From contig CAXXKM010000003.1 of the NCBI GenBank assembly GCA_963664435.2, positions 1,120,001 through 1,184,000 of the forward strand: 64,000 bases of DNA, read 5' to 3'. The translations under genes were made by a program, and so were the position numbers. Numbering within the stretch: position 1 is the stretch's first letter; every line of letters begins with the position of its first letter. Below are positions 12,988 to 31,048 of the stretch, in pieces. A model generated the notes under the pieces. That model was not told the DNA's origin and searched no databases. It saw only the letters and a list, made by a program, of their open reading frames with translations. The DNA is from Longimicrobiales bacterium (lineage in GTDB: Bacteria > Gemmatimonadota > Gemmatimonadetes > Longimicrobiales > Gaopeijiaceae).

Positions 12988-13335
12988 ATGAAGGACAGTT
13001 TCGCGATTCAGGAGCTGGGTGTCGCGCTGGTCAAGCTTGAGCGTCGCGTCGTCACCGGGTTCGATCAACTGAACGGACGGATCTCCGCATTGGAATCGAA
13101 GCTCGGCTCGCGGATCGACGACGTGGAGGCGCACGCGCACAAAGGGAACGTCGAGCTCGGGAGCAGGATTGAAATGGTGTCAGCCAAGTTCAAGCAGATT
13201 CGATACTCGCTCGACGGGCTGGAGGACCGCCTCGGCAAGAGGGTCGACGGATTGGACACCGAGGTCCACAAACAGCTCGGCGCTCTACAAGCCGCGGTCG
13301 ACGCGATCGGCGCGCACTTCGTCAGTTCGCAGTAG
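12988..13335 (+). CDS. Coiled-coil hypothetical protein
   Basis: AAGGAG RBS and heptad-like LESKLGSRIDDVE repeats. Confidence 0.7.
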   Translation: MKDSFAIQELGVALVKLERRVVTGFDQLNGRISALESKLGSRIDDVEAHAHKGNVELGSRIEMVSAKFKQIRYSLDGLEDRLGKRVDGLDTEVHKQLGALQAAVDAIGAHFVSSQ

Positions 13336-14669
13336 TCGAGGTTCTCCTATCCTGATGATCGACCATTTGGCCAGGATGCGCGATCGGGACGAATGACGAG
13401 TTCCGCGACGTGAGCTATTGCCAGGTCCAGGCCGAGGCCGTGCAGTGCGCCGACTGCGGAGGTCCAACCACGGAGGTCTTCGGCAATTCCGGACGCCGGC
13501 GGCGCTGAGCGCGCTGTGTGCCCGCGTTGCCGCGAGGATGTGCCGCGCAAGAGATGGCAGCGGGACGCGCTTCTGCCGGAATGACGCGACGGGCCGCTGC
13601 CGCGAGTGCGGGGCGATCACTTGCACCCTTCATCGGCGCGGATGCGAGTTCGAGCACCATCGAGCGCGGGCGCGCGCCGAGCCCTCGAGTTGACAGGGGA
13701 AGAGGGGAGACTCGGCGTAGCTCTGGAAGGCGGCTCGATTGACCGCGTCGACACAATCGCATCCCTACTTCGTCCGTTCCGAATTGCGCACCATGTCTTT
13801 GGCAGCCCTCACGCGGGGTTCATATTGCGGCGCGATGCTGCGGGTCCACCGAAGAAGAAGTCGCAGCCGCGCGTGAGCGAACCCGCCAACGAGCGGTCGT
13901 CACCGCTCACGGTCGCGATGCCCGACGCGCACTGAATGAACCGCACGCGGATTCGAGTGACCCGCGAGCCCCGGAACGTCCTTGAAGGCATCCCGCACGG
14001 CACTACAGTAGTCCTCCAGAGCGTCGGGGACGGGGACGGGTTCCTCCCCTCCTGGAGGGGCCGGAGGCGGATCCGGCCAGCGAGGACGATGCAACCGTGC
14101 TGGCGGGATATCCGGTCTTTCGCATGGCGACTTGGAAGGTCGGCACCGATCCCCTATGGGCTTGGCGCGCCAATGTTTCCTCGGTCCTCGCCGTGCGCTG
14201 GTGACGTCACGAGCGGGATCTCCGCCTGACCTCCGCGAGGCGAACGACGAATCACGGATCGTTTTTCAACAACGCAGCGGAGGTTTCCCACGCCGTTGAC
14301 CCCATTTTTCCACGAATCGCCTTCGTGCCGGTCGCTTGACTCCCGCACTGTCGGCCATCAGGCGGGAACGCTTCGTGACTTGTCTCGCGGAGCAAACGTC
14401 TGGCGCTGGGAGAGACCAGGAAGTGGGCAGCCTTCGCGTGGGCACATACTTGAGCGGCACCCTCTCATCTGCCCCATCCCGTTCACATACTTGCTGAGCC
14501 GCTGCCCCCGCCGAGCACTGCTCGCGCATCGTCCACCCCCCGGGCCGTGCCTCCTCCCCGCCCTCTCCGCAGCCCGCCGGTCGGCCCCCGCGCCGCTTGC
14601 GCGACGGCATCGCGTCCCGGAGGTTGGACGGACGTGGCGCCTCCTCGGCCACGATAAGGAGGGCCGTTC

Positions 14670-14885
14670 ATGGCGAAACAGGCGATCGAAATCGAAGGGG
14701 CGGTCATCGAAGTCCTGCCCAACGCCACCTTTCGGGTCCGGCTGGAGAACGGCCACGAGATCCACACATATCTCTCCGGCAAGATGCGCCAGCACTACAT
14801 CCGGGTGTTGGAGGGCGACCGGGTGAGATGCGAGATGTCCCCCTACGATCTGTCGAAGGGCCGCATCACGTATCGGTACAAGTAA
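14670..14885 (+). CDS. infA: Translation initiation factor IF-1 (stand-alone copy)
   Basis: [29 protein letters not shown]...[17 protein letters not shown]...[15 protein letters not shown], with AAGGAGG RBS. Confidence 0.97.
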
Positions 14886-14919
14886 TTCGCTGTACACGCT
14901 CGCCCTGCGGTCGATGCCG

Positions 14920-15165
14920 ACATCACAGAACCGGGCATGCTCACCGGCCGCGTGCCGCCAGCCTCGCCGGACTCGCCCCGGTCAGCCCGGGAGTCCGGAA
15001 ACTGAAGGGGACGGAGCTTCATCCAGGGCGGCAGGCATCGGGTGCGCCGGCTGCTTTGCATTGCGCGCGATGGCCTTGGTTCGGCACAATCCCGTCCTGA
15101 AGCACGAGTACGAGGCGTTCGTGGCCCGCGGGAAGCCGCCGAAGTTGACAACCCCAACGGCCCCG
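14920..15165 (+). pseudogene. IS110-family transposase C-terminal remnant
   Basis: Frameshifted AASLAGLAPV..ESG..GRSFIQGGRHRVRR..HNPVLKHEYEAFVARGKPPKL. Confidence 0.8.
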
Positions 15166-15213
15166 GTGCATTGTGGCCGCGCTGCACGACCCAGGGGACG
15201 GGGAGACGGCAAT

Positions 15214-15570
15214 CATGAGCAGATCGAATTCGTGGATGGCCGGGACGGCGTTGGGTCTTGCCATTGTAGCGGGACCAACGGTGGCGGCAGGCGAGGAACT
15301 CCCCCCCGACATCCGAAACGACCGCAACGTCGTGCGTGCCGATCGGCTGGTCCAAAACCAGGACCACGGTGCCGCGCTGGAATCCCTGGACGTGGTCTTG
15401 GCGCGGCAGCGCGGCAGGCCAGGAGCGGCATGAAGACCCCGGCAGAACTCTGGTTCAGGCACGCACGGACAGCTCCGGACGCCGGGTACGCCGAGACCGT
15501 GGCCACGTCGGTCGTCCGCTGCTTGGAGAAGGCGGGTCGGCGCGGAGCCTCCGCCGGGAAGACGGCGTGA
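15214..15570 (+). pseudogene. Degraded secreted TPR-like N-terminal module
   Basis: Signal peptide, then LPPDIRNDRNVVRADR..AALESLDVVL, a frameshift, then PAELWFRHAR..AGYAETV..VRCLEKAGR. Confidence 0.55.
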
Positions 15571-16053
15571 AGAAGTGGCGCCCACCCAAGGGACGGAAGC
15601 CGCCGAAGCGGAGGGTGGGGCAACGTCCGTCGCGCAAGCCACGGAAACAACGGCGGCGCCGCCGGGACAAGGGCCGGTGGGAGAAGGAAACAGACGACCG
15701 GATCGAGTGATCAGGTTCGGCACGTCGTCGGAACCACGCGTAGCGCGCCCAAACCTCTCTGCCGTATCGATCCGCCGGGGCCAACCGGAGCCGGTCGTAT
15801 GCTCCTGCCCGCGTCCAGCGACGTTGCCACTCCGGGGCGCGTGCGAGATGGGACCGTCGGAGGGCGGCGGGTCGATCACCCTGCGGGTCGCTGACTGCGT
15901 GGCTGACGGGCGCCGCACTTTGGTGTCCACGGTGGATCCGTGAACGTTCGGTAACCGCGCCACCCGGCCGGCGGGAAACTTCGAGAGCCGCGCCGCGCAG
16001 GTTGCGTGAGCCGGGGCTGGTGGGTGCCTCCTCGTCGTGGTGGTGGTCGCGCG

Positions 16054-16076
16054 GGACGGGCCGGTTGGGCCCGTCC
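16054..16076 (-). terminator. GC-rich hairpin downstream of the dead tnpB and its putative guide
   Basis: 9-bp stem GGACGGGCC/GGCCCGTCC; no U-tract. Confidence 0.5.
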
Positions 16077-16229
16077 GGCGGGTATTGAGTCGGTTCCGGC
16101 CTTCGGCGAACTCAAACTCTCCGGCCTTCGTTCGACGATTCGCGCTTCACGGACCGGACCGGAGTTACCGGTCTCCGCGCGCGTTCGGGGCGCTTGCGCG
16201 CCTCCGGTTCCGGCGGGCCTCGCCGTACC
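16077..16229 (-). ncRNA. Putative omegaRNA (scaffold plus 16-nt guide) overlapping the tnpB 3' end
   Basis: Shares GGTACGGCGAGGC-CGCCGGAACCGG...CCGAACGC-CGCGGAGACCGG...TGAA-CG-GAATCG with the two copies at 26550-26952. This is the usual position of TnpB omegaRNAs. Confidence 0.7.
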
Positions 16230-17194
16230 TGCAGTTGGCGCCCGTGCCAACGGGCCTTGTACTCGAGCTGGCGCAGCATCTCGCTGCTGACGCCCTCGAC
16301 GATGATCGTGCCGGCGGCGAGGACGACGATGGTGGTGAGCTTGTGGTGGCGGTCGCGCTCGCGGTTCCTGATGTTCCTGGCGACATTGCGGAACCGTTCG
16401 AGAACGCGGGCCCGCCGCTTCGAGTCTTCGGTGCAGCGGCTCAAGCGGCGCTGGAGCCGCCTCATCCGCTGCCTGTCGGCGTCGGAGCGCTCGTCCGGTC
16501 CCGGGACTTCGATGGGCCTGCCGTCGAGTTCGACGGCGATGCCCGGGCCGTCCTGGCGCACCACGGCGACCTCCGCCGTGGGCGCGGCGGCATCGACCGG
16601 GCCGCACTCGAACACGCACGAGAACATCCAGCGCTCGCCGGCGTCGCGCCAGACCCGGCCGTACACCATGCCGAGCGTCGTGCGGCTCTTCGGGCCCTCG
16701 AGCCGGCCAGCGGGCAGGCTCCCGCCCAGCCAGCGCATCCAGCCGAACTTCGGCAAGCGGACGCGGTTGCCGTCGAAGCGGGTGCCGTGGCTGGCCACGT
16801 AGATCCCGGGGGCGCGTCCCTCGGGCTTGAACCTCGGCAGCCCCTGGCGCGCGCGTGGCTTGGTGTGCCAGTTGCGGAACGCTCCGTGCATGTCGGTCGC
16901 GATCTGGTAGATGGCGGTGGACGGGAACGGGTCGCGGTTCGGCCTGCGGCGCCACCAGTCCTGGGCGGCCGCGCGGAACTCCTTGCCGGTCATGTGCCGG
17001 CCCGTCTGGGAATACTGCAGGTTCGAGGCGCCGAGCAGGGCGTTCGACAGCTCGCGGAGCCCCTCCCGGCACAGGGCGAGCAGGCGCGCCTGCGGCCGGT
17101 TCGGGTACAGGCGGCACTGCCAGCCGACGTAGCGCGCTTCCCCGTTCGGCCGGGCCGCGCGCGCGCCGGGCGCGGTCGGCCGCTTGGTCGCCAT
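16112..17194 (-). CDS. Nuclease-dead TnpB derivative (TldR-like RNA-guided DNA-binding protein)
   Basis: TnpB hallmarks RLYPNRPQ, GLPRFK, VRLPKFGWMR, RRLQRRLSR, HHKLTT and RQLEYKA are present. RuvC-I GxDxG is replaced by VVRQDG, and the Zn finger and RuvC-III are absent. Confidence 0.85.
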   Translation of the reverse strand: MATKRPTAPGARAARPNGEARYVGWQCRLYPNRPQARLLALCREGLRELSNALLGASNLQYSQTGRHMTGKEFRAAAQDWWRRRPNRDPFPSTAIYQIATDMHGAFRNWHTKPRARQGLPRFKPEGRAPGIYVASHGTRFDGNRVRLPKFGWMRWLGGSLPAGRLEGPKSRTTLGMVYGRVWRDAGERWMFSCVFECGPVDAAAPTAEVAVVRQDGPGIAVELDGRPIEVPGPDERSDADRQRMRRLQRRLSRCTEDSKRRARVLERFRNVARNIRNRERDRHHKLTTIVVLAAGTIIVEGVSSEMLRQLEYKARWHGRQLQVRRGPPEPEARKRPERARRPVTPVRSVKRESSNEGRRV

Positions 17195-17210
17195 GACGCT
17201 CCTCCCTCCC

Positions 17211-20200
17211 CTACCGGAGCTTGATCCGTCCGCGGACGCCCACCGAGTGCTGGGCCGCACCCAGCGCGCTCTCGCGCCGCGTGCCTTCCAGCCGCAGCCC
17301 GACCCCCGCGCCCAGATCGTAGCGCACGCCGCTCGAGAAGGCGCGCGTCCCGCTCTTGCCGAGGTAGAAGCCGCTGTAGGGCGTCCCCTGGAAGCCGGCG
17401 ATGCCGTAGGCCACTTCGCCGTCCACGTTGGGGCCCATGCCCAGGTCCTGGCCGCCCACCGCGTCGGACACCCCGCGCTCCCAGAGCTGGTTGACCCCGC
17501 TCCTGTGGTCGCCGTACGCGGGCGCCACCCGGACCTGCAGCCCCTGGCCCGGGGCCGCCGGGTCGAACATGAGCATGCCGCCGAGGCCCCATTCCTCGTA
17601 GCCTTGGCGCGCCGAGATGACGAACCGGCCGCGGCCCTCCGCGGTCAATCCCAGCCCGGAGTTCGTGTAGCGGAGCCCGCCGCCGACCTCCGCGCTGGTG
17701 CCGTTGATGCCGTCGCCGTTGTCGTAGCGCATCCCGCCCTCGAGCACGAACGCCATCTCCTGCCCCGTGTCGGTGCGGAAGCCTTGCGTCAACTCAAGGG
17801 CAAGCTTGGCGCGCTGCATGTCGAGCGTCACCGTGCCGATCTGCTCGGTGCCCTCGACCTCGAACCGGCCGCTCCAGCCCTCGGCCTTGAGGCTCACGCC
17901 ACCGATGCCGCTCGTGAACAGCTGGTAGCTCGCGCCTCCCGCCCCCGTCATCATGCTGGCGGGGCTGGTGCGGAGCCCTTCCCGCTCGTCGTCGACCTCG
18001 ATGTCGCCCCGGCCGATCCCGGCCGAACCCCACACCGAGGCGCCGCGCGCGCCGGGGAACCAGGCCACGTAAGGATGCGCGCTGGTCATGGTGGTGCCGT
18101 AGGTGCCGGCCACCGGTCGGGCGCCGGTCTTGTCGGTGAAGTCGAAGGAGCCCGAGTTGTACGAGCCCGCGACACCCGCCAGGATGTCCGGCCCCACGCG
18201 CATGTCCACGCCGACGTGGGCGCTCACCATGTTGCCCTTCCAGTCGAGCTCGCTCGCGCCGGGTTCGCCCATGTAGTGGTACTCGCCCGCACCCCAGCTC
18301 GCCATCTGCATGCCGGTCGCGGACTGCTGCGGCGCGTCCGGGGTGCCGAACGGCATCAGGAATGAGGTGCCGCCGAATAGGGCGGCCAAGCCGGCGCCGT
18401 CATTCTGGCCGAGGCCGAGGCCGCCCGGACCCGGCGCGGACAGGCTCGCGGCCATCGACGACAGTCCGTTCGTCTCCACGCTCTGCTCCATGCCCATCCC
18501 GTTGGCCACCGCGTTGACGCGGTTTGCGATCGCCGAGACGGTGCTCGAGGTCATCGCCGCGGCCACCTGCGGCAGGACGCGGGTGTTGAGCCGGCCCGCC
18601 CGCTGCACGGGGTCGTCGGTCGCCGCCGTTGCGCTCGCAGACGCCGCGCCGGTGCCCGCCCGGTTGATCGCCGACACCCGGTAGTGGCGCACGCTGCCCG
18701 GCTGCAGGGCGGTATGCGAAAAGGTGGCAACCGTGGACTCGGTGTTGGTGACCAGGTCCGCCCAGGCGGCGCCCGTCTCCGACACCTCGATGCGGTACCC
18801 GGTGATGGGCGCACCGCCATTGTAGTCGGGCGCGAGCCAGAACAGGTCGATCTGGGTGGGCGAGACATCGGTGGCGACCAGCCCGGTGGGCGCGTCGGGC
18901 ACCGTCGCGTCCGTGGTGGAGCCCGCGACCCGCGACGCGTTGCCCACGCCGATCCGGTTGATCGCCGAGACGCGGTAATGGCGCGTCGAGGCCGGCGCCA
19001 GCCCGCTGTGCGTGTAGACGGTGGCCGTGCTGCGCGTGGCGGCCACCAAGTCCTCCCAGCTCCCGCCCCCGTCGGCCGTGACCTCGATGCGGTAGCCGGT
19101 GATGCGGGCGCCCCCGTCGTCCGCGGGTGCCTGCCAGGAGAGGACGATCTGCGAGGTGCCGGCCGCATCGGCGTTGAGACGTCGCGGCACGCTCGGAACA
19201 GTCGCCTCGGTGGTCGCCCGCGCCACGTTCGAGAACGGCCCCACCCCCGCGAGGTTGATGGCGGCGACCCGGTAGTGGCGGGTGGTTGCGGGCCTCAGGT
19301 TCACGTCCGAGAACGCCGTCGTCGCCGAGTTCGTGTTGCGGCGGATGATGTTCCAGGTCGCGCCCTCGTCGTCGGAGGCCTCGACGCGGTAGCCGAAGAT
19401 CGAGACGCCGCCGGTGTAGCGCGGCGCGTTCCACGACAGGTCGATGCGCGAGGTGCCGACTGCCCGGGCCGTCAGCCCAGTCGGGGCCGCGGCGAAGTCC
19501 GCGTGCGTGAGGGCCGCCCCCGTGAGCGACCACTGCCCGGCGCCCACGCGGTTGATGGCCGCGACCTGGTACTGGTACCGGGTCACTGGGTCAAGCCCGG
19601 TGTGCGTAAAGGTCGTTGTCGTCTCCTCCGTGTTGGGACGGATGATGATCCAGGAGCGATCGTTGGGCCCGAGCATCCGGATGCTGTAGCCGGTGATGCG
19701 CGCCCCTCCGTCGCTCTCCGGCCGGTCCCAGACGAGGAGGACGCTGTTCGGTCCCGTTCCGCGGGCGCGTACGTTCTGCGGCTGCCCGGGAGGCGCCGCA
19801 TCGGTGGTGCCTTGGGCCACGTTGGAGGCGCGTCCCGTACCCACGCCGTTGATCGCGGACACGCGATAGAACCAGGTGGCGGCGGGGCCGAGATTGCTGT
19901 CGGTGTAGATGGTGGCCGTGCTGCCCGTGCCGGGCACATGGATGATCCAGCCGCCGCCGCCGGTGGCGGACCTCTCGATGCGGTAGCCGGTGATCGGGCT
20001 GCCGCCGTCGTCGGGCGGGGCGGACCAGGTGAGGAGGAGTTCGTCGGTTCTCCTCGCGCCCGGAACCACGCTCAGTGCTATGGGCGGGCTCGGAGGGGTG
20101 GCGTCGGTGGTCGCCTGGGCGGTGTTGGACCACGGGCCCAGACCCGCCCGGTTGATCGCTGCTACGCGGTAGTGGCGCGTGGTGGCGGGGCTGAGCTCGT

Positions 20201-21509
20201 CGTCGGTGTAGGTGGTGGCCGTGGACTCGGTGTCGGCCTCGAGCCGCGTCCAGGGGCTGCGTCCGGCCCGCGACCATTCGATGCGGTAGCCGGTGACCGG
20301 CGTCGAGCCGCTGGAGGAGGGGGCGCGCCACCTCAGTTCGATGGCGGACATCCCCCGGGCCTGCGCCGTCAACGACCGAGCCGCGTCCGGCAGGACATCC
20401 TCGGTGGTGGCGTCGGCGACGTTCGAGGGGTCACCCGCCCCGTTGAAGTTGATGGCCGACACCCTGTAGTGCCGCGTGACGCCCCCGGTGAGATCCTTGT
20501 CGTCGCGGTAGCTGGTGTCGGTGTTCCGGGTATTGCGCTCCAGAGTCGACCACGGGTCGCGGCCGTCTTCCGACCACTCGATGAGGTACCCGGTGATCTC
20601 GCGACCGCCATTCGAACTCGGCGCCTCCCACTCCAGTATGATCGCGTCGGGGCCGTCGGCCTCCGCCGTGAGCTTGCGCGGCTCTCCGGGCACCCCGGTG
20701 CGCGCCTCCCCGGTGACGTTTCGCACCGCCCTGTCGAAGCCGAACGCGCGATTGCCGGCCAGATCCCGAAGCGCGTCGGCGCCGCGGTCGTCGTAGAACA
20801 CCCGAACCGCGTCGAGCGTATCGACGGGGCTTGCCAGAAGCAGGAACACATCGCGGGTGGCCACTTCGACCCGGGACACGGTCTTGACGTCGTGTGACAC
20901 GGTGCTATTTCCGAAGGCGACTTGGAAATAGCTGGTCGATGGGACGAAATCCTCATCGAGGTCTTCGTCGAAGGCGATGACGACTTCGTCGCCGTTGACC
21001 TTCGCGTCGCTGACTACAGGGCCCCTGGTGTCCACGTTGATGTTGACCACTCTCGACGGGGTATTCCCCTCCTGCGAGCTGTTCTGCACCACGTTCCCAG
21101 GGATATGGAAGAACACCAGGCCGTCATATTGTTCCGGCATCCTCATCGTGACGACAAACCTCCTGCCTTCGTCACTGTCCAGCGGATCGGCCACTGCACA
21201 CGCCGCGGTCGGGTGCGTGCACGTGATGTTGATGTCGTCGACCGTGAAGCCGGTCACGCTCTGCGAGAAACGGATGACGACGCTGGCAGAGTTCTGTGTG
21301 GACCCGATCCAACTCCATGAAATCGAGGTCGTGGGGGGGACGGCCACGTCGCTCGCCACTGGGGATTCCACAACCGACGGGACGCCCGCACGCGAACCGC
21401 CCACATATGGCTCCTCAGCCTGTACGCCCGCAGATGGAACCAGGAGCGCGCAGACCACTGCGGCCGCCAAGAGGGAACGGACGGGTACGCCAGGCTGATT
21501 CGGAATCAT
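17211..21509 (-). CDS. Fibronectin type III repeat autotransporter-like surface protein
   Basis: Signal peptide, Ig-like and SwmB-like domains, 7 Fn3 repeats (P..P..L.A....I.L.W..P...GG..ITGYRIE), C-terminal beta-barrel. Confidence 0.88.
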   Translation of the reverse strand: MIPNQPGVPVRSLLAAAVVCALLVPSAGVQAEEPYVGGSRAGVPSVVESPVASDVAVPPTTSISWSWIGSTQNSASVVIRFSQSVTGFTVDDINITCTHPTAACAVADPLDSDEGRRFVVTMRMPEQYDGLVFFHIPGNVVQNSSQEGNTPSRVVNINVDTRGPVVSDAKVNGDEVVIAFDEDLDEDFVPSTSYFQVAFGNSTVSHDVKTVSRVEVATRDVFLLLASPVDTLDAVRVFYDDRGADALRDLAGNRAFGFDRAVRNVTGEARTGVPGEPRKLTAEADGPDAIILEWEAPSSNGGREITGYLIEWSEDGRDPWSTLERNTRNTDTSYRDDKDLTGGVTRHYRVSAINFNGAGDPSNVADATTEDVLPDAARSLTAQARGMSAIELRWRAPSSSGSTPVTGYRIEWSRAGRSPWTRLEADTESTATTYTDDELSPATTRHYRVAAINRAGLGPWSNTAQATTDATPPSPPIALSVVPGARRTDELLLTWSAPPDDGGSPITGYRIERSATGGGGWIIHVPGTGSTATIYTDSNLGPAATWFYRVSAINGVGTGRASNVAQGTTDAAPPGQPQNVRARGTGPNSVLLVWDRPESDGGARITGYSIRMLGPNDRSWIIIRPNTEETTTTFTHTGLDPVTRYQYQVAAINRVGAGQWSLTGAALTHADFAAAPTGLTARAVGTSRIDLSWNAPRYTGGVSIFGYRVEASDDEGATWNIIRRNTNSATTAFSDVNLRPATTRHYRVAAINLAGVGPFSNVARATTEATVPSVPRRLNADAAGTSQIVLSWQAPADDGGARITGYRIEVTADGGGSWEDLVAATRSTATVYTHSGLAPASTRHYRVSAINRIGVGNASRVAGSTTDATVPDAPTGLVATDVSPTQIDLFWLAPDYNGGAPITGYRIEVSETGAAWADLVTNTESTVATFSHTALQPGSVRHYRVSAINRAGTGAASASATAATDDPVQRAGRLNTRVLPQVAAAMTSSTVSAIANRVNAVANGMGMEQSVETNGLSSMAASLSAPGPGGLGLGQNDGAGLAALFGGTSFLMPFGTPDAPQQSATGMQMASWGAGEYHYMGEPGASELDWKGNMVSAHVGVDMRVGPDILAGVAGSYNSGSFDFTDKTGARPVAGTYGTTMTSAHPYVAWFPGARGASVWGSAGIGRGDIEVDDEREGLRTSPASMMTGAGGASYQLFTSGIGGVSLKAEGWSGRFEVEGTEQIGTVTLDMQRAKLALELTQGFRTDTGQEMAFVLEGGMRYDNGDGINGTSAEVGGGLRYTNSGLGLTAEGRGRFVISARQGYEEWGLGGMLMFDPAAPGQGLQVRVAPAYGDHRSGVNQLWERGVSDAVGGQDLGMGPNVDGEVAYGIAGFQGTPYSGFYLGKSGTRAFSSGVRYDLGAGVGLRLEGTRRESALGAAQHSVGVRGRIKLR

Positions 21510-21574
21510 CGTGCCTTCTCCGCGTCAGGTGAAATGCGCGGTGGAATAGTCATTTGCTTACCGGTCGTCTGGTG

Positions 21575-21673
21575 AGCGTCACCCCCCGTTCGGGAGTCCC
21601 GAACGGGGGGTGACGCTGTCCCGCGGCCTGCGACCATCAGCCTGGCTGACGGTTAGTCAGCCAGGCTGATGGT
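21575..21673. terminator. Two tandem perfect hairpins (21-bp and 18-bp arms) between the two surface-protein genes
   Basis: AGCGTCACCCCCCGTTCGGGA-G-TCCCGAACGGGGGGTGACGCT and ACCATCAGCCTGGCTGAC-GGTTA-GTCAGCCAGGCTGATGGT. Confidence 0.75.
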
Positions 21674-21683
21674 GTTGAAGGGG

Positions 21684-24600
21684 TTATGGGACATCTACTG
21701 GCGTACCCTCGGTGAAGTCGCCAGCACTGCCCTGTCTCGAGTCGACGCGAACTCTGAACGGCTTGTTGAGTTCGACGTCCGTGATCGCAATCGCCGTTCC
21801 ACCCACCGTGTTCCAGCTCGCGGTGAAGTCATGAATCCACTCCAAGCTCCAACTCCTGGTGGTGCTTGCGATGGTGGCGGGCTCTCCACCTGAGGCGACG
21901 AGCCACAAAGTCGAACCAGTGTTTTCGGAGGCGACCTCAACCATGATCCGGAACTCGGAACTGGTGTTGCTATCGGCGTCCCAAGTGACGGTGAGGGTGT
22001 CGGCAACGGTGGTATCGGCAGTCGCCGCACGACTCGCAGTGACACCGCTGGTCGACGGATCGACCGCGCCGACCGTGACCGGATCGGATTCGATCGTGAA
22101 GGTAAGGTCCGAATCGGTGGGGTGTGCGACCGACGTCACCACTCGAACCATGAAGGTGGTATCGCCCGGCGACGTGAACGTGTAGCTGCCCGGGACATTG
22201 ACCGTAGTGCCGAGGCTGTCGCGCGTCACCAAGGTTGCGCTCGCATCCGTGAAGGTGCCGGTGTAGTTGTGCTGCACCTCGTGCGTGGCGGGGCTGGTGA
22301 ACCCTTCGGGCACGTCCGTGGCGCTGTCGACGAACTTCACGCTGATGTTGCCATCGTAGCGTTCGGATTCGTCGATGTCCTCGGTGGACTCGTCGTCCTC
22401 CGTGCGGGCACGCGATGCGCTGAGGTTCCTAGCCCCAGGCGACAGCGCCTCGATCGCGCCGAAGTTCAAGCTCTGACCCGGTGCGACGCTCACCCTCTGG
22501 TTGTCGTTCGGATACTTGAAGCTGTGGTTCGCCAACGACGCTTCGATGTCATAGGCGCCGAACGGTACGCTGAGCACGAAGGTGCCTCTCGCGTTGCTGG
22601 TGCTCAAGACGTCGTCCCCGGCTGCGCCTGCGACCACGTTCGTGGCCGTGACCGTAACGCCACCCATGGCGTTGCCGTCCGGACCTCTCACCCGGCCCGA
22701 AATCGTCGCATGCTGGAAGCCGGTGAAGTTGATGCCCGAGACCGCCGATCCGGCGTGGGCCGGAACAGACAGCGTCGCAGGCGCGAAGCTCATGCCGTCC
22801 TTCGACACGGTCACATCGGCGCTCTCGCCGAGGTCCTTGGCCGCGAATTCTGCCGTGTAGGTGCCGTCGGCGCCCGTCACGAGCTTGCCCCTGTTCGCAC
22901 CGGTCTTGGCCGCGTTGGTCGGGGCATTGCCGTCAACCTTGATCTCCGCACCGGCGATCGGCGCGCCGCTGCCGGACGCGGTGACCGTACCGCTGATCGA
23001 GGCGATCGTGCCTACGCCCGAAAGATCGACGTCCTGCCGGATCCGGCTGTTTGCGGCAAAGGCCTGGATGTTCCGCGTCTCCCCGCTTCCTCCATGGGCG
23101 GTCTCGACGAAGACGCTGTTCGTGTGCGTCACGGTGCCGATTTTGCGGCTCGCCACGTTCGGCACGTACTCCGCGATGTAGCGGCCGTGTACGTCGGACA
23201 TCGCTACAACACCGTTCACGTTCACGTTCACGCTGTCCACGGGGAAATCCTCCGCGTCCTTCACGTAGCCGTAGACGGTGGTCGTCGCCGGCGTGACGTC
23301 GAGTGAGACGTCACCCGCGAGCGGGTTGAAGGCGTTGCCGACCATGGCCGTGGCGCCCTTCGGACCCAGCCTCGCCCGCCAGCCGTCCGTCACGCTGGCC
23401 TTGTAGACGCCGGCCGCGATGTTGTTGAAGGCGAACTGGTGGGTCTCGTCGAGCACTTCATTGCCCTTGGCGGTCTCACCCGGCCCCCGGACCGGCTTCT
23501 CCGTAGTGGTGGCGGACTCCTCGTCACCCGCGAGATTCTTGCCCTCGACCGGGCTCAGGCTGACGGAAATGCCGGCTACGAACGTGGGGGGGGCACCCTC
23601 GGGATCATATACGTCGACTCCGTCGGTCTTGCCGAACGAGAATCTGTCATCGTTGGCAGTCTCGGTGCTCTTGACGACCACGTTCTTCCAGATCAGCCCG
23701 CTCACCGAGTGCGTGCTGACGTAGGCGAACGACGAGCAAGCGTCGTGGTCCTGCGGGTTCTCGTCCTGCAGCGGGCAGAGCGAAACCGTGTGGCTGTAGC
23801 CGCCCTGCGCACCGAAGTGGCCGCCGGTGATGCCGTTGGCATCCGTGCCGGTGTAGGCGGCGAGCTCATCGGCATGCCCGCCCTCATCGAGGATCATGAT
23901 GCTGAGGTCGGTGTTGTCGGCCTTCGACGCGTTGGCGATCACGTTCATGTCGGCCGGCACGTTGCTGAAGACCCACGCACCGCCGTCACCATTGTCTTTC
24001 GGTTCGCTGATGCTGTCCGCAGCCGTGAACGCGCGCGAGCGTCCGGAGTCGTCGATGTAGCGGAGGTCGACATCGACCTTGCGGTCGGCGCCCTTACCGT
24101 CCCTCTCGTCACCGCCGAGGATGTTGCCGGTGTAGCCTTCGACTTGATCAAGCTCGTGGTGCACGTAGACCTTGAGGGTCTGGGTCGTGAACGCCACCTC
24201 GATCATGTCGGCGTTCTGGGTGCCCGCCAGCATGAGGCCGGTGTGGGTGTACTCGACCGAGCCACCGTCGTAGCTCTCGCCGCCGTCCAGCGTGTTGGCC
24301 TGGTCGTCGTCGACGGCGATGGTGAAGGTCGCCGGCAGGTCGTCGGCTCCCACGGTGGTCGTGAACGCGGCGACGCCGGCTGTGTCCAGCTTCTCCGGCG
24401 CGCCTGCGACCGAGTCTTCGCCTGCCATGACGCTGATGGCCCAGTTGGCGAGCGTGTCGCCGCCACCGTACTCGGTGGTGACGGTGGCACCGCTGATGGC
24501 CACGTCGACGTTCAGGTTGACGATGTCGTTCTCGTTGGCGCCCGCGGCCATGTTGTACTGCGGGTTCCACGACACGACCGTCATGCCGTCGGCCACATGG

Positions 24601-26330
24601 TAGCCGTCGGCGGAGACGCTCGCGTGGACCATGTTGCCGCTGGTGCCGGCGCGCGCGACCCGGATCATCACCGAGCCTTCTTCGCCGGTCATGCCGCTGC
24701 CGATCTTGGTCTCACCGGCCGCGTCCGAGAAGAAATCGACGATCGCGCCGGGAAGCGCGGCACCCATCTCTTCACCGCTCCTCAGCGAGGCTGTGAAGTT
24801 GACCCTGGTGTGCGTGATGTCGAACGGAACCGACTGCGTCACAGCCTCGCCGACACCGAGGGCGACCGCGTAGCCCTCGCCGGGTCCGCCGTAAGCCAAG
24901 TCGTTGGCCGCGAGAGCCGCGGCGACCGTGGCGTTGATGGTCACGACCAACTGGTACGGGCCGGCGCGGAGGCCTGTGAAGGAGAACGCGCCGGTCGAGT
25001 CGGTGAGGCTCACCCGCTGCTCGTTGACGCCCGGGCCCACCAGCACCACCGGAAGACCGGCGTGCGCCAGCGGATGCTCGCCCTCGTCGAACATGTCGTT
25101 CTTGGTCGCCTCGTCAACGTACGCCATGCCGGACACGCTCGCGGTGCGCGCGTGCGCGCCCTCGAAGTTAATGATCGCCGACTCGTCGTCGCCGACCGTC
25201 ACGTCCGTGCTCATCGACTCGAAGACGTAGGCGTCGCTGTCGACCGCGATCGAGACCGTGTAGTCGCCGGCCGCCAAGCCCGCGAAGGAGTACTGGCCGC
25301 CCGCGTCGGTCATCGCGGTGCGGTCGTCCGCGCCCGCCAGCGTGACCGTGATCTCGCCGAGGCCCATGCCCTCGACGCTCACCCGGCCGCTGATGCCGGA
25401 GGTGCGGAGCAGGACGCCGGTGAACGACACGGTGCTGGTCTCATCGAGATCCACGTTCACGTCTTGGGACGTGGACGCGAACTCGTAGTCGCGCGCGTCG
25501 AAGTCAGAGATCGAGACCGTGTAGGCGCCGGGACGCAATTCCTCGAACCGGTACATGCCGTCGGCGTCGGTCATGATGGTGTAGCTCTCGTCGGCGGGAC
25601 CGCCGCTCAGGGTAACCGTCACCCCAGCAAGGCCCTCGCCTTCGATGATCACCTGGCCCTCGACCGCGGAGGTGCGGATGAAGTGGCCCGTGAAGTCGGC
25701 CTGGCCGACATCGCCGACCTCGACCGCTACCTCGACCATCACCGTCTCGAAGGAGACGTCCTCCGGATAGTCGCTGATCGTGACCGTGTAGGTGCCGGCC
25801 CGGAGCCCGGTGAACGCGAAGCCGCCGGTCTCGTCGGTCTCCATGGTCTCGCCCATGGCGTGCTCACCGCCCAGCGTGACCGTAACGCCTGCCAGCGTTT
25901 CGGGCTGGCCGTCGCCGCCGCTCATCATGGCGTCGGCCGCAACCACGTTGCCGACCACTGCGGACGAGCGGATATACTCGCCGGCGAAGTTGAGTTGGAC
26001 GTTCTGACCATCGGTCGCGATGGTCGCGGACTGCGTCACTTCGGCGAACGTCGCGTCCTCGGGGAAGCCGCTGATGGTGACCGTGTAGGTTCCCTCTTCC
26101 ACGCCCGAGAAGGCGAAGTTGCCGCCCGACCCGGTGGTCGTGGTCGCACCGGACGACAGGGTGGCGGTGACGCCGCTGGCGGCCGTGCCCTCGATCGTCA
26201 CCGCCCCGGAGATCGTCCCCACGGCAGCAGGCTCCGGCGGGGGCTCCACTATCGGTGGAGTGCCCTCGTCGCAGGCGGTAATGGTAACGGCCAGCAGCAG
26301 CGCCAGCCCGTGCTTGGTAAAACGGTTCAT
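21684..26330 (-). CDS. Large acidic surface lipoprotein with repeated carboxypeptidase-regulatory-like/SdrD-B-like domains
   Basis: Lipobox ITAC, repeats of GVTVTLSG...TD..G.F.F.GL.AG.YTVTIS, GGAGGG RBS. Confidence 0.88.
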   Translation of the reverse strand: MNRFTKHGLALLLAVTITACDEGTPPIVEPPPEPAAVGTISGAVTIEGTAASGVTATLSSGATTTTGSGGNFAFSGVEEGTYTVTISGFPEDATFAEVTQSATIATDGQNVQLNFAGEYIRSSAVVGNVVAADAMMSGGDGQPETLAGVTVTLGGEHAMGETMETDETGGFAFTGLRAGTYTVTISDYPEDVSFETVMVEVAVEVGDVGQADFTGHFIRTSAVEGQVIIEGEGLAGVTVTLSGGPADESYTIMTDADGMYRFEELRPGAYTVSISDFDARDYEFASTSQDVNVDLDETSTVSFTGVLLRTSGISGRVSVEGMGLGEITVTLAGADDRTAMTDAGGQYSFAGLAAGDYTVSIAVDSDAYVFESMSTDVTVGDDESAIINFEGAHARTASVSGMAYVDEATKNDMFDEGEHPLAHAGLPVVLVGPGVNEQRVSLTDSTGAFSFTGLRAGPYQLVVTINATVAAALAANDLAYGGPGEGYAVALGVGEAVTQSVPFDITHTRVNFTASLRSGEEMGAALPGAIVDFFSDAAGETKIGSGMTGEEGSVMIRVARAGTSGNMVHASVSADGYHVADGMTVVSWNPQYNMAAGANENDIVNLNVDVAISGATVTTEYGGGDTLANWAISVMAGEDSVAGAPEKLDTAGVAAFTTTVGADDLPATFTIAVDDDQANTLDGGESYDGGSVEYTHTGLMLAGTQNADMIEVAFTTQTLKVYVHHELDQVEGYTGNILGGDERDGKGADRKVDVDLRYIDDSGRSRAFTAADSISEPKDNGDGGAWVFSNVPADMNVIANASKADNTDLSIMILDEGGHADELAAYTGTDANGITGGHFGAQGGYSHTVSLCPLQDENPQDHDACSSFAYVSTHSVSGLIWKNVVVKSTETANDDRFSFGKTDGVDVYDPEGAPPTFVAGISVSLSPVEGKNLAGDEESATTTEKPVRGPGETAKGNEVLDETHQFAFNNIAAGVYKASVTDGWRARLGPKGATAMVGNAFNPLAGDVSLDVTPATTTVYGYVKDAEDFPVDSVNVNVNGVVAMSDVHGRYIAEYVPNVASRKIGTVTHTNSVFVETAHGGSGETRNIQAFAANSRIRQDVDLSGVGTIASISGTVTASGSGAPIAGAEIKVDGNAPTNAAKTGANRGKLVTGADGTYTAEFAAKDLGESADVTVSKDGMSFAPATLSVPAHAGSAVSGINFTGFQHATISGRVRGPDGNAMGGVTVTATNVVAGAAGDDVLSTSNARGTFVLSVPFGAYDIEASLANHSFKYPNDNQRVSVAPGQSLNFGAIEALSPGARNLSASRARTEDDESTEDIDESERYDGNISVKFVDSATDVPEGFTSPATHEVQHNYTGTFTDASATLVTRDSLGTTVNVPGSYTFTSPGDTTFMVRVVTSVAHPTDSDLTFTIESDPVTVGAVDPSTSGVTASRAATADTTVADTLTVTWDADSNTSSEFRIMVEVASENTGSTLWLVASGGEPATIASTTRSWSLEWIHDFTASWNTVGGTAIAITDVELNKPFRVRVDSRQGSAGDFTEGTPVDVP

Positions 26331-26396
26331 CTTTCCCTCCTGGGAGTGGGTTGCGGTCAGCGAGGAAACATGGAGCCTCGCGGCTCACGCTTACGG

Positions 26397-26412
26397 AGCA
26401 ACAACGGTGCCA
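26397..26412 (-). promoter_or_regulatory. Sigma-54 -24/-12 promoter of the surface lipoprotein gene
   Basis: TGGCACCGTTGTTGCT has the exact GG-N10-GC spacing, about 70 bp upstream of the ATG. Confidence 0.8.
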
Positions 26413-26481
26413 CCCGAGGAAGCCCGGTTTTACAGTGGGTTTCGGCCCGTACGCTCCGGCCTGGGACCGCCGCTCCCGGTT

Positions 26482-26504
26482 TTCTGACGGTCAAGACGTC
26501 AGAA
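26482..26504. promoter_or_regulatory. Candidate enhancer (bEBP) binding palindrome
   Basis: TTCTGACG-N7-CGTCAGAA lies 70-90 bp upstream of the -24 box. Confidence 0.55.
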
Positions 26505-26533
26505 TTCTGGTGGCGCCCCGGGGCCGGGCCCCG

Positions 26534-26738
26534 CGTAGCGGTTAAAGCGATTCCGGCAGTCGCTGGGTCGGTCCCGGGGGGTGCCCGGCTCTGTATCGCG
26601 ATTCACGGTTCAGCGACCGCCACGGTAGCCGAAGCCCCATGGTAACCCGGTCTCCGCGTGCGTTCGGGACGCCAAGGTCCCCGGTTCCGGCGTGCCTCGC
26701 CGTACCGTAACAGGGTTGCGCGCCGCGTTTGACGCCGC
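26534..26738 (-). ncRNA. Stand-alone omegaRNA-like unit 1 (189-nt scaffold plus putative guide CGCTTTAACCGCTACG)
   Basis: Homologous to the tnpB 3' end; one frame reads LLRYGEARRNR, a relic TnpB C-terminus. The 16 nt after the scaffold are followed by a GC hairpin. Confidence 0.72.
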
Positions 26739-26748
26739 CAAGCCGCAC

Positions 26749-26952
26749 TATAGCGGCACACCAAATTCCGGCAGTCGCTGGGGCGGTCCCGCGGGCCGCC
26801 CGACTCTGCATCGCGATTCACGGTTCAGCGACCGCCACGGCAGCCGAGGCCCCACGGTAACCCGGTCTCCGCGTGCGTTCGGGACGCCAAGGTCCCCGGT
26901 TCCGGCGTGCCTCGCCGTACCGTAACAGGTTGTGTGCCGCGTTTGACGCCGC
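26749..26952 (-). ncRNA. Stand-alone omegaRNA-like unit 2 (188-nt scaffold plus putative guide TTGGTGTGCCGCTATA)
   Basis: Near-identical direct repeat of unit 1 at a 215-bp period; reads NAAHNLLRYGEARRNR, a RuvC-III relic. Confidence 0.72.
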
Positions 26953-27794
26953 TCCCCATGGCGTCGCCCCTGCGGTCACCCCAGCCCTCTCTCGATCCTC
27001 CAGTTTCGCGATCCGGCGCTCGTTCGGGCCGAGGCCGCTGACAGGGCCTTCCGCAGGCCCGCGCGGGCGCGCCCCTTCGGCAGCCGCTCGCGGTATCGGT
27101 CGAACTCCCTCTGTCTCGTCCTCGGACAGCATGAAGAAGTCGGTCTCGTTCATTTCGGTTACTCAAGGACCCCAAGGGCCCCCGCTCCAGACCTACAATT
27201 GTGCGGAAAACGCGCAAGCGATGCTAGCTCCGTTGCAGTTCTCACCGCAACTTCGGGTCCTTCGGAAGAGGGGGCAGCGGAGAGTGCTCTTGGTCCGGCG
27301 ACGCAGAAGCCCTGGTGCCCAAGCCACCCGCCAACGATACAGCGGGCAGTACAAAGAACGCGGCAGGAGCCGGGGCTTGCTGGTTCTGGCTTCCGCTCAG
27401 CCATCGACGACCCTCCGGTAGAGGCCGCAGACGAATGGCGAATTCGAGGCCGGCCGCCTTCGCCGACTCCTGGAGGTCGGCGAACTTCTCGGCGTCGACG
27501 CGCTTCTCGCTGTACTCCTCGCCGGGAGCAGCCGAGGTATCGCAGTCCTTCCAGAATCCCTTGTTGAAGTCGCTTTGCCGCCCCTGCACCGGTAACCGTG
27601 CTCGCAAACGAGGGGTGGGGGAGTCTCCGACGGTCCAGTAAGCCCTCGCCGGGGCTGCCCGGACCTTGAACCGGTGGCGTCCGTGCGCAACGCCTCCGCC
27701 GACCTGCATCTCCGGTCCTCCCAAGCCCCCTACCGGAAGTCCCGGGCGTCCCGCCGAGGGCATTCAGACGCGCTGCTGGCGGCAGTGTCCTTTG

Positions 27795-28994: not shown

Positions 28995-29333
28995 ATGCCA
29001 GAGCGCCGCACCGCCGTCGTCACCGCCCGCGTATCGGCGACCGAGTTCGCCGACTGGCGGGCCAAAGCCGCAGCCGCAGGCGTGCCCCTGTCGGCGCTCA
29101 TCCGGCGAGCCATGGCCCGTACTCGGACCTGGACGGCCCGCGCGGCCGAGGTCGAGCGCGAGCGCACCCGGGAGGCCGGCCGCATCGGCAACAACCTCAA
29201 CCAGATCGCTCGGTGGGCAAACACCCACAAGGGGTCGGCCGAGGCCGTCGAGGTGATCGCCCGCCTTGTCGCCATAGAGCGGGCCCTCACGGCGCTTGCT
29301 CGCTTCGAGAGCCCGGACTCCGATGCACATTAA
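28995..29333 (+). CDS. mobC: Mobilization accessory protein MobC/MbeC
   Basis: RHH-like N-terminus and RIGNNLNQIARWAN motif. Confidence 0.9.
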   Translation: MPERRTAVVTARVSATEFADWRAKAAAAGVPLSALIRRAMARTRTWTARAAEVERERTREAGRIGNNLNQIARWANTHKGSAEAVEVIARLVAIERALTALARFESPDSDAH

Positions 29334-30867
29334 GTTCCTGGCGCACGGGACCGGCTCGGCCGGCAAGGCGGCTGGCTACCTGTTGGGGGAGCGGGACGCC
29401 GCCGGGAAGCCGCGCGAGGGCGTCGAGGTGCTGCGCGGGAACCCGGACATGGTGGCCGCGGTGGCCGATTCGCTCGACTTCGAGCACAGGTACACGTCCG
29501 GCGTGATCGCCTGGGCGCCGGACGACCAACCCACCGACGAGCAGATCGAGGCGGTCCTGGACGCCTTCGAGAAGACGGCCTGGGCGGGACTGGAACCCGA
29601 CCGCTACGCATGGGCGGCCGTGCTCCACCGCGAGCGCGGCGGAGGGGCTCACGTCCACGTCCTTGCCGCACGGTGTGACCTCGAAACCGGCCGCAGCCTC
29701 AACATCGCGCCTCCGGGATGGCGGAGGGCGTTCGATCCGCTCCGCGACGCCTTCAACCACGAGCACGGCTGGAGCCGGCCGGACGATCCGGCCAGGGCCA
29801 GAGTGCAGCACCCCGGCCACCGCGCCTACGTCGAAGCGGCACAGCTGCGGGCCGGGCTCCGGCTCGAATCCTCCCCCCGCGACCTGATCCGGGACTACCT
29901 GTTTCAGAGGGTCGAGCACGGCACGGTGCGGAATCGCCACGATGTCGTGTACGCACTGCGGGAGGCGGGCCTCGAAGTGCCGCGCCAGGGCAAGGACTAC
30001 CTCACCGCGCTCGACCCCGAGACCGGGGACCGGTGGCGGCTGAAAGGAGAACTGTATGGAGAGAACTTCGACCGCGAACGATTTGACCGAACGGCTGCGG
30101 AGACGGCTGGAGAGCGAACGCAGGGAGATCGAGGAGTTGACCGCGAGCGAGCTCGCACAGCTCGCCGAGAACTCGCGGCGCGTCGTGAGGAACGCGCTGC
30201 GTACCATCGAGCGCGATACGGAGGAGGCGACCGGGCGGATGCGCGAGTTGCTGGTCAAGGCGTGGCTCCGGCCGCTGATCGTCGGCCTGAGTCTTTGGAT
30301 CGGTTTCTTCGGCGGAAGCTGGGCGACGATGCGCTGGTTGGCGGGCAGCATTCAGGACCGGATCGTGACCCGCGCCGAACTAAACCGGGACATCGAGGAC
30401 GCCCGGCGAACGCTGGCCCAACTGGAGGTGGATACCTGGGGGCTCGTGTTCCACGAGATCGAGGGCGAGCGGTTCGTGGTGGTGCCGGACGGGGTGCTGG
30501 CCGATCCGCCCTGGTGGGTGGACGGGGATCGTCCGGCGTTGAAGCTGTCGAACGAGTAAAGGAGGTCTATGACGCGTTAGAGGAGCAGTTGACGAGAGCC
30601 TTGCGGAGGCTGTGCGCGCAGTACGAAACGGAACAGCGGCGGCACTCCGGGCAGGTCGAAGCCTTGCAGCGGCAGGTCGAAGCCTTGCAAGGGCGCGTCG
30701 AGCGGCAAAGCGGGGAGAACGAAGCCTTGCGGCAGCACGTCGAGCGGCAGAGCGCGGAGAACGAAGCCTTGCAGATGCGAATCGAGCGGCTCGACGCGCT
30801 AGCGACACGCTTGGCCGAGTATTCCGGGACATCCGCCGTCGCGAGACCGCGCGGCCTCGGTATCTGA
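29323..30867 (+). CDS. mobA: Relaxase MobA/MbeA-like; C-terminus shifted into the MobD frame
   Basis: MHIKF..GTGS...AAGYLL, YTSGVIAW, VLHRE....AHVHVL and GRSLNIAPPG motifs. Confidence 0.88.
   Translation: MHIKFLAHGTGSAGKAAGYLLGERDAAGKPREGVEVLRGNPDMVAAVADSLDFEHRYTSGVIAWAPDDQPTDEQIEAVLDAFEKTAWAGLEPDRYAWAAVLHRERGGGAHVHVLAARCDLETGRSLNIAPPGWRRAFDPLRDAFNHEHGWSRPDDPARARVQHPGHRAYVEAAQLRAGLRLESSPRDLIRDYLFQRVEHGTVRNRHDVVYALREAGLEVPRQGKDYLTALDPETGDRWRLKGELYGENFDRERFDRTAAETAGERTQGDRGVDRERARTARRELAARREERAAYHRARYGGGDRADARVAGQGVAPAADRRPESLDRFLRRKLGDDALVGGQHSGPDRDPRRTKPGHRGRPANAGPTGGGYLGARVPRDRGRAVRGGAGRGAGRSALVGGRGSSGVEAVERVKEVYDALEEQLTRALRRLCAQYETEQRRHSGQVEALQRQVEALQGRVERQSGENEALRQHVERQSAENEALQMRIERLDALATRLAEYSGTSAVARPRGLGI
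30056..30559 (+). CDS. MbeB-like mobilization protein nested in an alternate frame of the relaxase
   Basis: Own AAGGAG RBS, coiled coil plus one TM helix, same nested layout as ColE1 mbeB. Confidence 0.7.
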   Translation: MERTSTANDLTERLRRRLESERREIEELTASELAQLAENSRRVVRNALRTIERDTEEATGRMRELLVKAWLRPLIVGLSLWIGFFGGSWATMRWLAGSIQDRIVTRAELNRDIEDARRTLAQLEVDTWGLVFHEIEGERFVVVPDGVLADPPWWVDGDRPALKLSNE

Positions 30868-31048
30868 TGCGCCGCCCGGGACCGGACCGCGATCAGGGTC
30901 CGAGCCGCTGACGATGGCGTCCAGTCGCTTGCCACCCGAACGCCGCAGCGTCCGGCGCGCCGTCAACCGCCCGTCTGGCGGAGACGCCTTGCCGAAGCGA
31001 AGTTTCAAACGCGCAGATCGTGCGGTCCATCACGAGAGGAATCGAGTG

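Follow-up and report, generated by a model that had tools for sequence, protein, structure and literature searches.

A candidate clade of TnpB-derived, RNA-guided repressors linked to paralogous sigma-54 surface operons in Gemmatimonadota

The DNA analysed here is a 64-kb stretch (the window) of a Longimicrobiales genome that is 96% complete. On its minus strand, within positions 16054-26952, lies an operon encoding a giant lipoprotein, an autotransporter and a nuclease-dead derivative of TnpB, whose gene ends in an omega-RNA-like guide-RNA scaffold. The TnpB-like protein has lost two of its three catalytic positions, its gene family is under purifying selection and is repeatedly found next to surface-protein genes, and the short conserved segments that follow the scaffold match sites at or just before the starts of paralogous lipoprotein genes. 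Taken together, these sequence features make it moderately probable that the family is a new clade of RNA-guided repressors of the TldR (dead TnpB) type, which would cross-silence paralogous surface operons.

An original prediction, made from the letters of the window alone, had listed two tandem scaffold units, a sigma-54 promoter, open reading frames (ORFs) of 1548, 1432 and 360 residues and a third scaffold. All of these are present as ORFs, motif or alignments. The two tandem units are described further below; the operon itself comprises the following features.

26398..26412, minus strand: sigma-54 promoter consensus TGGCACCGTTGTTGC (motif TGGCAC-N5-TTGC)
21684..26330, minus strand: giant lipoprotein of 1548 residues, W-type (open ORF)
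17211..21509, minus strand: Fn3-repeat autotransporter of 1432 residues, with seven fn3 stretches and a C-terminal beta-domain
16112..17194, minus strand: tldR-like gene of 360 residues, a C-terminally truncated, RuvC-dead TnpB derivative of clade 1 (ORF and homology)
16093..16229, minus strand: guide-RNA scaffold, omega-RNA-like, ending in ...GAAGGCCGGAAC and overlapping the last ~39 codons of the tldR-like ORF
16084..16092, minus strand: putative 9-nt guide CGACTCAAT, the first 8 nt of which are kept in six of six clade-1 loci
16050..16083, minus strand: GC-rich hairpin without a T-tract, immediately 3' of the guide (z = -6.3 against shuffles)

The 360-residue protein aligns with the NCBIfam model guided_TnpB over model positions 3-293 of 389 (E 6.5e-21, under the curated cut-off), and its only Pfam match is OrfB_IS605 (PF01385), with 31 bits where the cut-off is 30.5. 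In the PDB, a family profile matched ISDra2 TnpB (8bf8/8exa) at E 3.8e-36. In the pairwise alignment with ISDra2 TnpB, whose catalytic residues we take to be D191, E278 and D361, an Arg or Gln stands at the RuvC-I Asp of 'GVDVG', the RuvC-II Glu is retained ('IIVEG') and the alignment stops after 'LEYKARWHGR'. The nearest relatives with a zinc ribbon, P0038 (421 residues) and P0040 (377 residues), are 41-43% identical. In comparison with these two proteins the dead-TnpB family lacks 19 residues after the RuvC-II Glu, a segment that from its position would be the lid region, and all sequence from the zinc ribbon through RuvC-III. The ORF runs on, one base out of register, into DNA that encodes '..RYGEARRNRG..' in the long relatives, and its tail 'VRRGPPEP..' is therefore translated RNA scaffold. 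Two of the three RuvC D-E-D positions are thus lost (the first Asp replaced by Arg or Gln, RuvC-III deleted together with the zinc ribbon) and the Glu is kept, as expected from the earlier description of a TnpB derivative without a functional RuvC. Loss of at least two of these positions marks a TldR (Wiegand 2023 preprint).

No transposase accompanies the gene. Profile searches of the whole source genome found neither a Y1 transposase (PF01797) nor a TnpB zinc-ribbon domain, the controls matching 6 and 8 of 14 reference genomes, respectively; the absence of tnpA, originally noted for the locus, therefore extends to the genome. All four dead-TnpB copies in the genome are short forms. Besides the window copy, these are an identical one in a 16-kb inverted duplicate and two on contig C1 that are 53-54% identical to the window copy. 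An active IS200/IS605 TnpB element was considered and rejected, given that the D-E-D triad and zinc ribbon are not intact, there is no TnpA and the sole identical copy lies within the 16-kb duplicate. This duplicate (window 10000-25985 against C3:1794161-1778193, at the contig end, 99.87% identical) includes the dead-TnpB and autotransporter genes, and its lipoprotein gene is 5'-truncated at residue ~116, next to integrase-like sequence. The duplicate reflects either a recent rearrangement or an artefact of the assembly.

The conserved linkage and purifying selection that the original prediction led one to expect among homologues were both found. A word-indexed protein search returned 37 family proteins of 202-421 residues (41-100% identity), all but two of which lack the zinc-ribbon Pfam family; their source names, where given, are Gemmatimonadetes or Gemmatimonadota. 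Within the genus, 16 of 19 genomes contain a dead-TnpB match. The ratio of nonsynonymous to synonymous divergence (dN/dS, Nei-Gojobori) of the gene body is 0.23-0.48 in 16 pairs, the pair of the window copy and L039 having been left out as it was extracted out of frame, and 0.31-0.40 between the window copy and four clade-1 orthologues. In the ORF tail that overlaps the scaffold, dS is at most 0.1 in 10 of 12 pairs (both exceptions involve L015), against 0.2-0.42 in the body, which we read as a sign of constraint on the RNA.

For the gene neighbourhood, 34 related loci were taken from species-representative genomes, mostly metagenome-assembled genomes labelled Gemmatimonadetes or Longimicrobiales, with a few labelled Gammaproteobacteria, one Vicinamibacteria and one Alphaproteobacteria. 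Lipoprotein and/or autotransporter genes adjoin the dead-TnpB gene in 25 of these loci, and in four more the lipoprotein start codon lies at the edge of the fetched flank, giving 29 of 34; the remaining five comprise two contigs of only 3.3-3.5 kb, a locus with little flanking sequence and two distant hits. The dead-TnpB gene is found in three arrangements. In clade 1 (80-100% identical) it follows the surface-protein genes in the same direction, as it does in the window; in a second group, mostly of clade 3 (52-55% identical) and including the two copies on C1, it precedes the lipoprotein gene divergently; and in the third it is convergent.

The linked operons share a putative sigma-54 promoter. 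The pattern TGGCA[CT]-N5-TTGC lies within 200 nt upstream of all 24 lipoprotein starts examined; in the 64-kb window TGGCAC-N5-TTGC occurs once (shuffle mean 0.12, with at least one match in 11 of 100 shuffles), and rpoN, encoding sigma-54, is present in the source genome. In the 1548-residue lipoprotein a lipobox can be read from the sequence (..ITAC, residue 20), and there are seven CarboxypepD_reg stretches. In the 1432-residue protein the PF03797 beta-domain was detected when the C-terminus was scanned alone (26.7 bits, cut-off 26) and not when the protein was scanned whole; of its 30 ESM-Atlas feature hits, autotransporter clusters make up 27 (score 0.95). A predicted beta-domain C-terminal to a passenger region is the arrangement of a type Va autotransporter. 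The lipoproteins form a multigene family, with 21, 10, 9, 7 and 4 regions matching the first 311 residues in five genomes. The two with most matches, G001 (21) and G046 (10), belong to the same genus and yielded no dead TnpB with the window query, so the multigene family also exists without the regulator.

In clade 3 a conserved ORF of ~300 residues ends directly before every dead-TnpB gene (e.g. L003:557-1483, which is C1:913900-914826, and 20 other loci). It gives weak helix-turn-helix signals (HTH_18, E 0.069; MerR, E 0.16) and may form an operon with the clade-3 gene. Two distant paralogues are located elsewhere on contig C3 and none in the window.

A homologous scaffold is found at the 3' end of every family copy. 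It ends in an invariant GCCGGAAC, after which only the next 8-10 nt are conserved within each clade and the sequence beyond is unrelated. The segment that follows is CGACTCAA in six of six clade-1 loci and AGACTCAA in five of five clade-2 loci; in clade 3 it is GAATCAG in 22 of 22 loci and GAATCAGGG in 17 of these 22. Past 9 nt the flanks have no homology to lipoprotein genes in any locus. In two clade-2 loci (L018:2849-2896 and L019) the scaffold end and guide are tandemly duplicated (..GGCCGGAAC AGACTCAAGA CCGAAGGCCGGAGC AGACTCAAAA..), resulting in two near-identical short guides. A hairpin follows the guide at the same place in other clade-1 and clade-2 loci, with locus-specific sequence, and the clade-3 loci are mixed in this respect. 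The hairpin is not a canonical terminator, and neither sigma-70 promoters nor T-tract terminators were found in association with the guide RNAs. The scaffold matches no Rfam family (three weak hits at 21576-21699 are irrelevant), and the minimum free energies of single scaffolds are unremarkable (z = -0.5 to -2.0).

The guides are probably shorter than originally proposed. Three 16-nt guides with targets had been predicted; searches of the source genome with these guides at lengths of 16-20 nt and up to four mismatches gave no credible targets, and only 8-9 nt are conserved and matched. The extended window guide gave 12-13-nt matches at C3:1188113 and C3:1199779. Both fall in a low-GC island, one of them within an ORF, with unrelated flanks, and they were judged to be chance. 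The island extends from window ~54000-64000 on to C3:1204000 and has a GC content of 0.55-0.62, compared with ~0.69 for the genome.

The conserved segment of clades 1 and 2 is identical to the sense strand at the start of lipoprotein genes that begin 'MNRLK', where ATGAAC is followed by CGACTCAA. In the source genome GAACCGACTCA occurs three times, at the two guide loci and at the start of lipoprotein C1a; the paralogue C1b starts ATGAAT CGACTCAG and the C2 pair ATGAAC TGACTCAAA. The pattern GAAY[CA]GACTCAA has 16 sites in five other genomes, namely six guide ends, nine lipoprotein starts and one other, and a control pattern has none. The lipoprotein genes in cis to clade-1 and clade-2 copies start differently, with CGTTTTACC (in the W-type gene of the window, ATGAAC CGTTTTACC), CGCTTCACC, CGTTTCCTC or (TGAGT) AGATTCACC, and are not matched by the guide.

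The clade-3 segment matches a second type of site, TTGAAC followed by GAATCAGGG, which lies antisense in the 5' untranslated region (5'UTR), between the sigma-54 promoter and the ATG and 22-36 nt ahead of the latter. In the source genome these sites belong to two lipoprotein operons without a dead TnpB (C2:12967 and C2:54997). Of 151 genomes of the order, 9 contain the 14-mer TGAACGAATCAGGG and none its reversed control: the 14-mer is present in the source genome, in six of nine others of the genus, in none of 41 from other genera of the family, and in two elsewhere in unrelated contexts. All genus cases have it at the identical 5'UTR position. Ten genomes of the genus were covered by both searches, of which seven have the clade-3 gene and the site, two have neither, and one has the gene with a variant site matching 8 of 9 positions. 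Operons adjoining clade-3 genes carry a GAATACCGG-like sequence at that place instead.

Both target types have the 5' flank TGAAC in common, where the RNA gene itself has GGAAC. Within -120 to +30 of five lipoprotein starts, an 8-nt hit flanked by TGAAY was obtained in 1 of 5000 shuffles for clade 1, in 0 of 5000 for clade 3 and for 1 of 20000 random genomic 8-mers. The family also shows another mark of a TldR, a guide complementary to a motif-flanked site in a 5' region that is conserved across homologues, with the motif inferred from the same data. The suggestion that the element expresses its own coat and silences paralogues holds in part: the guide matches TGAAC-flanked paralogue starts and not its own operon, whereas variant guides, described below, lack compensatory targets.

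In the proposed mechanism, the dead TnpB and its guide RNA would be made together with the W-type operon from one sigma-54 transcript, as suggested by the gap of only 16 nt, containing GGAGG as a ribosome-binding site, between the autotransporter stop and the ATG of the 360-residue gene. The guide RNA, encoded across the 3' end of the dead-TnpB gene, is predicted to be ~145 nt long, starting near GGTACGGCGAGG and ending 8-12 nt past GCCGGAAC. The complex would recognise TGAAC or TGAAT next to CGACTCA(A) on the sense strand, at codons 1-5 of the B-type 'MNRLK' lipoprotein genes. With the motif then facing the promoter, the bound complex would stand in the way of elongating RNA polymerase; this is the orientation that worked for 5'UTR roadblocks in published reporter tests (Wiegand 2023 preprint). 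The cis-linked 'MNRFTK' lipoprotein gene would escape through seed mismatches. Clade-3 regulators, divergent and upstream of the B-type target operons, would in turn match the 5'UTR of the C2 type, a third class without such a gene. The arrangement suggests tiered exclusion among alternative surface coats. A bolder proposal is that of a complete network in which the dead TnpB of each operon class blocks the next class (W the B start codons, the B-linked one the C2 5'UTR) so that one coat is made at a time, and orphan guide modules may even reach a SusC-like transporter. Such a network is possible, though we regard it as doubtful.

The orphan modules are two scaffold units that lie detached upstream of the operon, with the following features.

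26550..26738, minus strand: proximal detached scaffold unit arr2, aligning with the 3' end of the tldR-like gene
26541..26549, minus strand: arr2 putative guide CGCTTTAAC, at the position after the arr2 scaffold
26765..26952, minus strand: distal detached scaffold unit arr1, aligning with the 3' end of the tldR-like gene
26756..26764, minus strand: arr1 putative guide TTGGTGTGC, with no target found
26833..27090, minus strand: weak remnant of the C-terminal part of a zinc-ribbon TnpB, P0040-like, continuous with arr1 (tblastn)

Each unit starts in the former RuvC-III 'NAARN' codons of a P0038/P0040-type gene and ends in GCCGGAAT, and arr1 continues into the remnant of a P0040-like C-terminal region (37% identity over 86 residues, E 0.002). 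No P0038/P0040-type (zinc-ribbon) protein was found in the source genome. In the relative G158 the corresponding place still holds a zinc-ribbon-type gene flanked by scaffolds. The two units are thus most likely leftovers of a lost sister TnpB gene and the upstream array is probably vestigial. The original prediction had taken them for a working array that supplies several extra guides in trans to the dead TnpB, which now appears quite unlikely. The units are 93.7% identical to each other with different 3' segments, and they share the 5' half of the scaffold and its GCCGGAA end with the gene-linked RNA, as such an array would. The arr2 guide also has an 8-nt, TGAAT-flanked match (ATGAAT followed by CGCTTTAA) to the gene of a SusC-like TonB-dependent receptor, at its start codon, but gene starts of the form ATGAAYCG are common and the chance level of the match is estimated at a few percent, so that it is a lead only. 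Derivation from another TnpB subfamily whose protein is absent argues against the array, as do the arr1 guide, which has no target in the source genome (best hits of 7 nt, inside an ORF), the guides of the zinc-ribbon-type units in G158, for which no targets were found, and the lack of such units upstream of the orthologous operon in G031. The receptor itself (1069 residues, C1:893433, minus strand, outside the window) has CarboxypepD_reg, Plug and barrel regions and starts ATGAAT CGCTTTAAT. A small hairpin repeat, CTAGTGTTGTGCCGCTAAAGCGGTGTT, came up as 3-mismatch hits to the arr1 guide and is present at at least nine sites in the genome (e.g. C1:725035 and C3:413303). Contigs from four sequencing runs show that the locus is also contained in sponge-metagenome assemblies, in which the contigs are interrupted at the tandem units.

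Next to the array, at window 29278-36431, are genes for a relaxase, two tyrosine recombinases and an ArdC/zincin-like protein. Many copies of the 28.5-34 kb stretch, 74-95% identical, are spread over all three contigs; the stretch therefore represents a multi-copy mobilisable element family. The other flank of the operon is housekeeping (HU, molybdopterin oxidoreductase) and no element boundaries were found, so the claim that the operon resides on a mobile element was not sustained.

Several observations weigh against RNA-guided repression. Covariation in the scaffold is weak, with two-sided changes in 1 of 25 consensus pairs (RNAalifold), and the conserved 8-9 nt could themselves pair in part with the last scaffold loop (6 bp in clade 1 and 5 bp in clade 3, by eye), with a predicted pairing probability of at most 0.37. 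The TGAAY motif was derived from the same matches that it scores, and when this flank is left out the shuffle rates rise to 74 of 5000 for clade 1 and 124 of 5000 for clade 3. Five genomes with variant guides (four GAATCAGCG, one GAATCAGCA) were searched for matching targets; the four targets found stay GAATCAGGG, with no compensatory change, and the fifth genome yielded none. The start-codon target is also present in the genomes without the regulator (ATGAAC AGACTCAAG in G001, CGACTGAAG in G046), and it is constrained by protein coding as well. GAAC is common to the scaffold end and the target flank. The identities of 12-13 nt may for that reason reflect shared descent, for example after an ancestral insertion where a lipoprotein gene starts, instead of a motif next to a target. 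In the clade-3 target it is the side distal to the promoter that carries the motif, an orientation that was less effective in the 5'UTR reporter tests (Wiegand 2023 preprint). Finally, in a 74% identical copy in G067 (L134:10050-11053) the scaffold stops after ..AGTTTGAG and no guide is recognisable. This copy lies directly upstream of a lipoprotein gene, and a second scaffold, encoded on the other strand, ends ..GGCCGGAAC AGACTTAAC.

These points could be explained if the locus were the relic of a degraded insertion-sequence passenger, retained for another reason or still to be lost, the 8-9 nt being part of the scaffold and its old right end, and the matches recording ancestral insertion or recombination with no regulation today. 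In clades 1 and 2 conservation ends exactly after ...TCAA, which presumably resembles the right-end cleavage motif of IS608-type elements and could be a former transposon right end. The shared GAAC, the complementarity to the scaffold loop, the missing compensatory targets, the G067 copy without a guide and an upstream array that is visibly a gene remnant all fit with this explanation. Nevertheless, we consider it unlikely on balance. The ORFs are intact in many genomes, with a dN/dS of 0.23-0.48 across copies that are 52-87% identical, the RNA-coding tail appears to be under constraint at the nucleotide level, and neither TnpA nor an active TnpB remains in the genome. Each of two distinct conserved segments has its own matching site close to lipoprotein genes, and as the flanks past 9 nt have no lipoprotein homology, the 9 nt have been kept while the rest was replaced. 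A functional ribonucleoprotein with another role, acting as antisense on mRNA or recruiting or activating transcription in the manner of dCas12f-sigma-E systems, seems very improbable. Together with GAAC, the clade-3 guide has 13 nt of complementarity to the target 5'UTR, immediately before the ribosome-binding region, and since its partner is the coding strand it would pair with the mRNA as well. RNA-guided activation by a dead Cas12f relative has been described (Hoffmann 2026), and the ~300-residue ORF with weak helix-turn-helix signals before every clade-3 gene could be a partner. The clade-1 guide, however, is identical and not complementary to the mRNA, so a common mechanism on mRNA fails. 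No sigma factor is linked in the window, and the targets are downstream of an existing sigma-54 promoter. Repression by a TldR-type complex accordingly stays the preferred reading.

If this reading is correct, the family would be a very compact natural programmable repressor, with a body of ~320 residues, a 9-nt guide and a new motif. It would provide a natural multi-node RNA-guided circuit and show how an uncultured animal (sponge) symbiont chooses among alternative surface coats. The complete network, should it exist, would be a native circuit similar to CRISPR interference in a chromosomal multigene family and not a single phage-versus-host switch. In any case, the analysis offers concrete candidate guide-target pairs in a phylum with almost no genetics and ties the proposed RNA-guided repression to a large family of sigma-54 surface operons.

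By sequence, the closest solved relative is the ISDra2 TnpB-omega-RNA complex (PDB 8bf8/8exa/8h1j), in which the RNA likewise lies at the 3' end of the gene and overlaps the ORF. In ISDra2 TnpB the D-E-D triad and the zinc ribbon are intact, and a transposon carries it together with TnpA, whereas here two of the three catalytic positions are gone and there is no transposase. TldRs as such are already known. The fliC, oppF and csrA clades have been named, and further domestications are stated to be uncharacterised (Xiao 2026 preprint). What would be new here is a further clade; the tiered network among paralogous operons is the bolder and unproven reading. A full-text literature search for TnpB with Gemmatimonad returned only a CRISPR classification, and in the supplementary text searched of the Wiegand 2023 preprint Gemmatimon, Longimicrob and Palauibacter are not named. 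A dead protein of the TnpB/Cas12 lineage, transcription control and an alternative-sigma context are also found in the dCas12f-sigma-E system of Bacteroidetes (Hoffmann 2026). That system activates via a linked sigma factor, whereas none is linked here and the sites lie downstream of sigma-54 promoters.

A close parallel is the fliC_P TldR of enterobacterial prophages (Wiegand 2023 preprint). Both have a dead TnpB with an adjacent guide RNA, no tnpA and a linked surface-structure gene, and in both the guide matches a motif-flanked site at a paralogue while the linked copy escapes by mismatches, which for fliC_P lie in the motif and the seed. The family described here differs in forming an independent clade in Gemmatimonadota, with no prophage context shown here, and in its cargo, a sigma-54 lipoprotein and autotransporter operon of a multigene family. 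Its predicted site is the start codon where that of fliC_P TldR is the -10 element, its putative guide is ~9 nt compared with ~16 nt, and its putative motif is TGAAY in place of GTTAT. In guide length the family is more like the oppF TldR of Enterococcus, which has a 9-nt guide, a disordered lid and a block of elongation downstream of the transcription start site (Xiao 2026 preprint). Both, the present family by prediction, combine a very short guide and a target downstream of the transcription start with a lost or disordered lid and select among paralogues of one component. Unlike in oppF TldR, the zinc ribbon and RuvC-III have been lost entirely by truncation in the present family, whose ORF extends into the scaffold, and several clades with different guides appear, from sequence alone, to be tiered in one genome.

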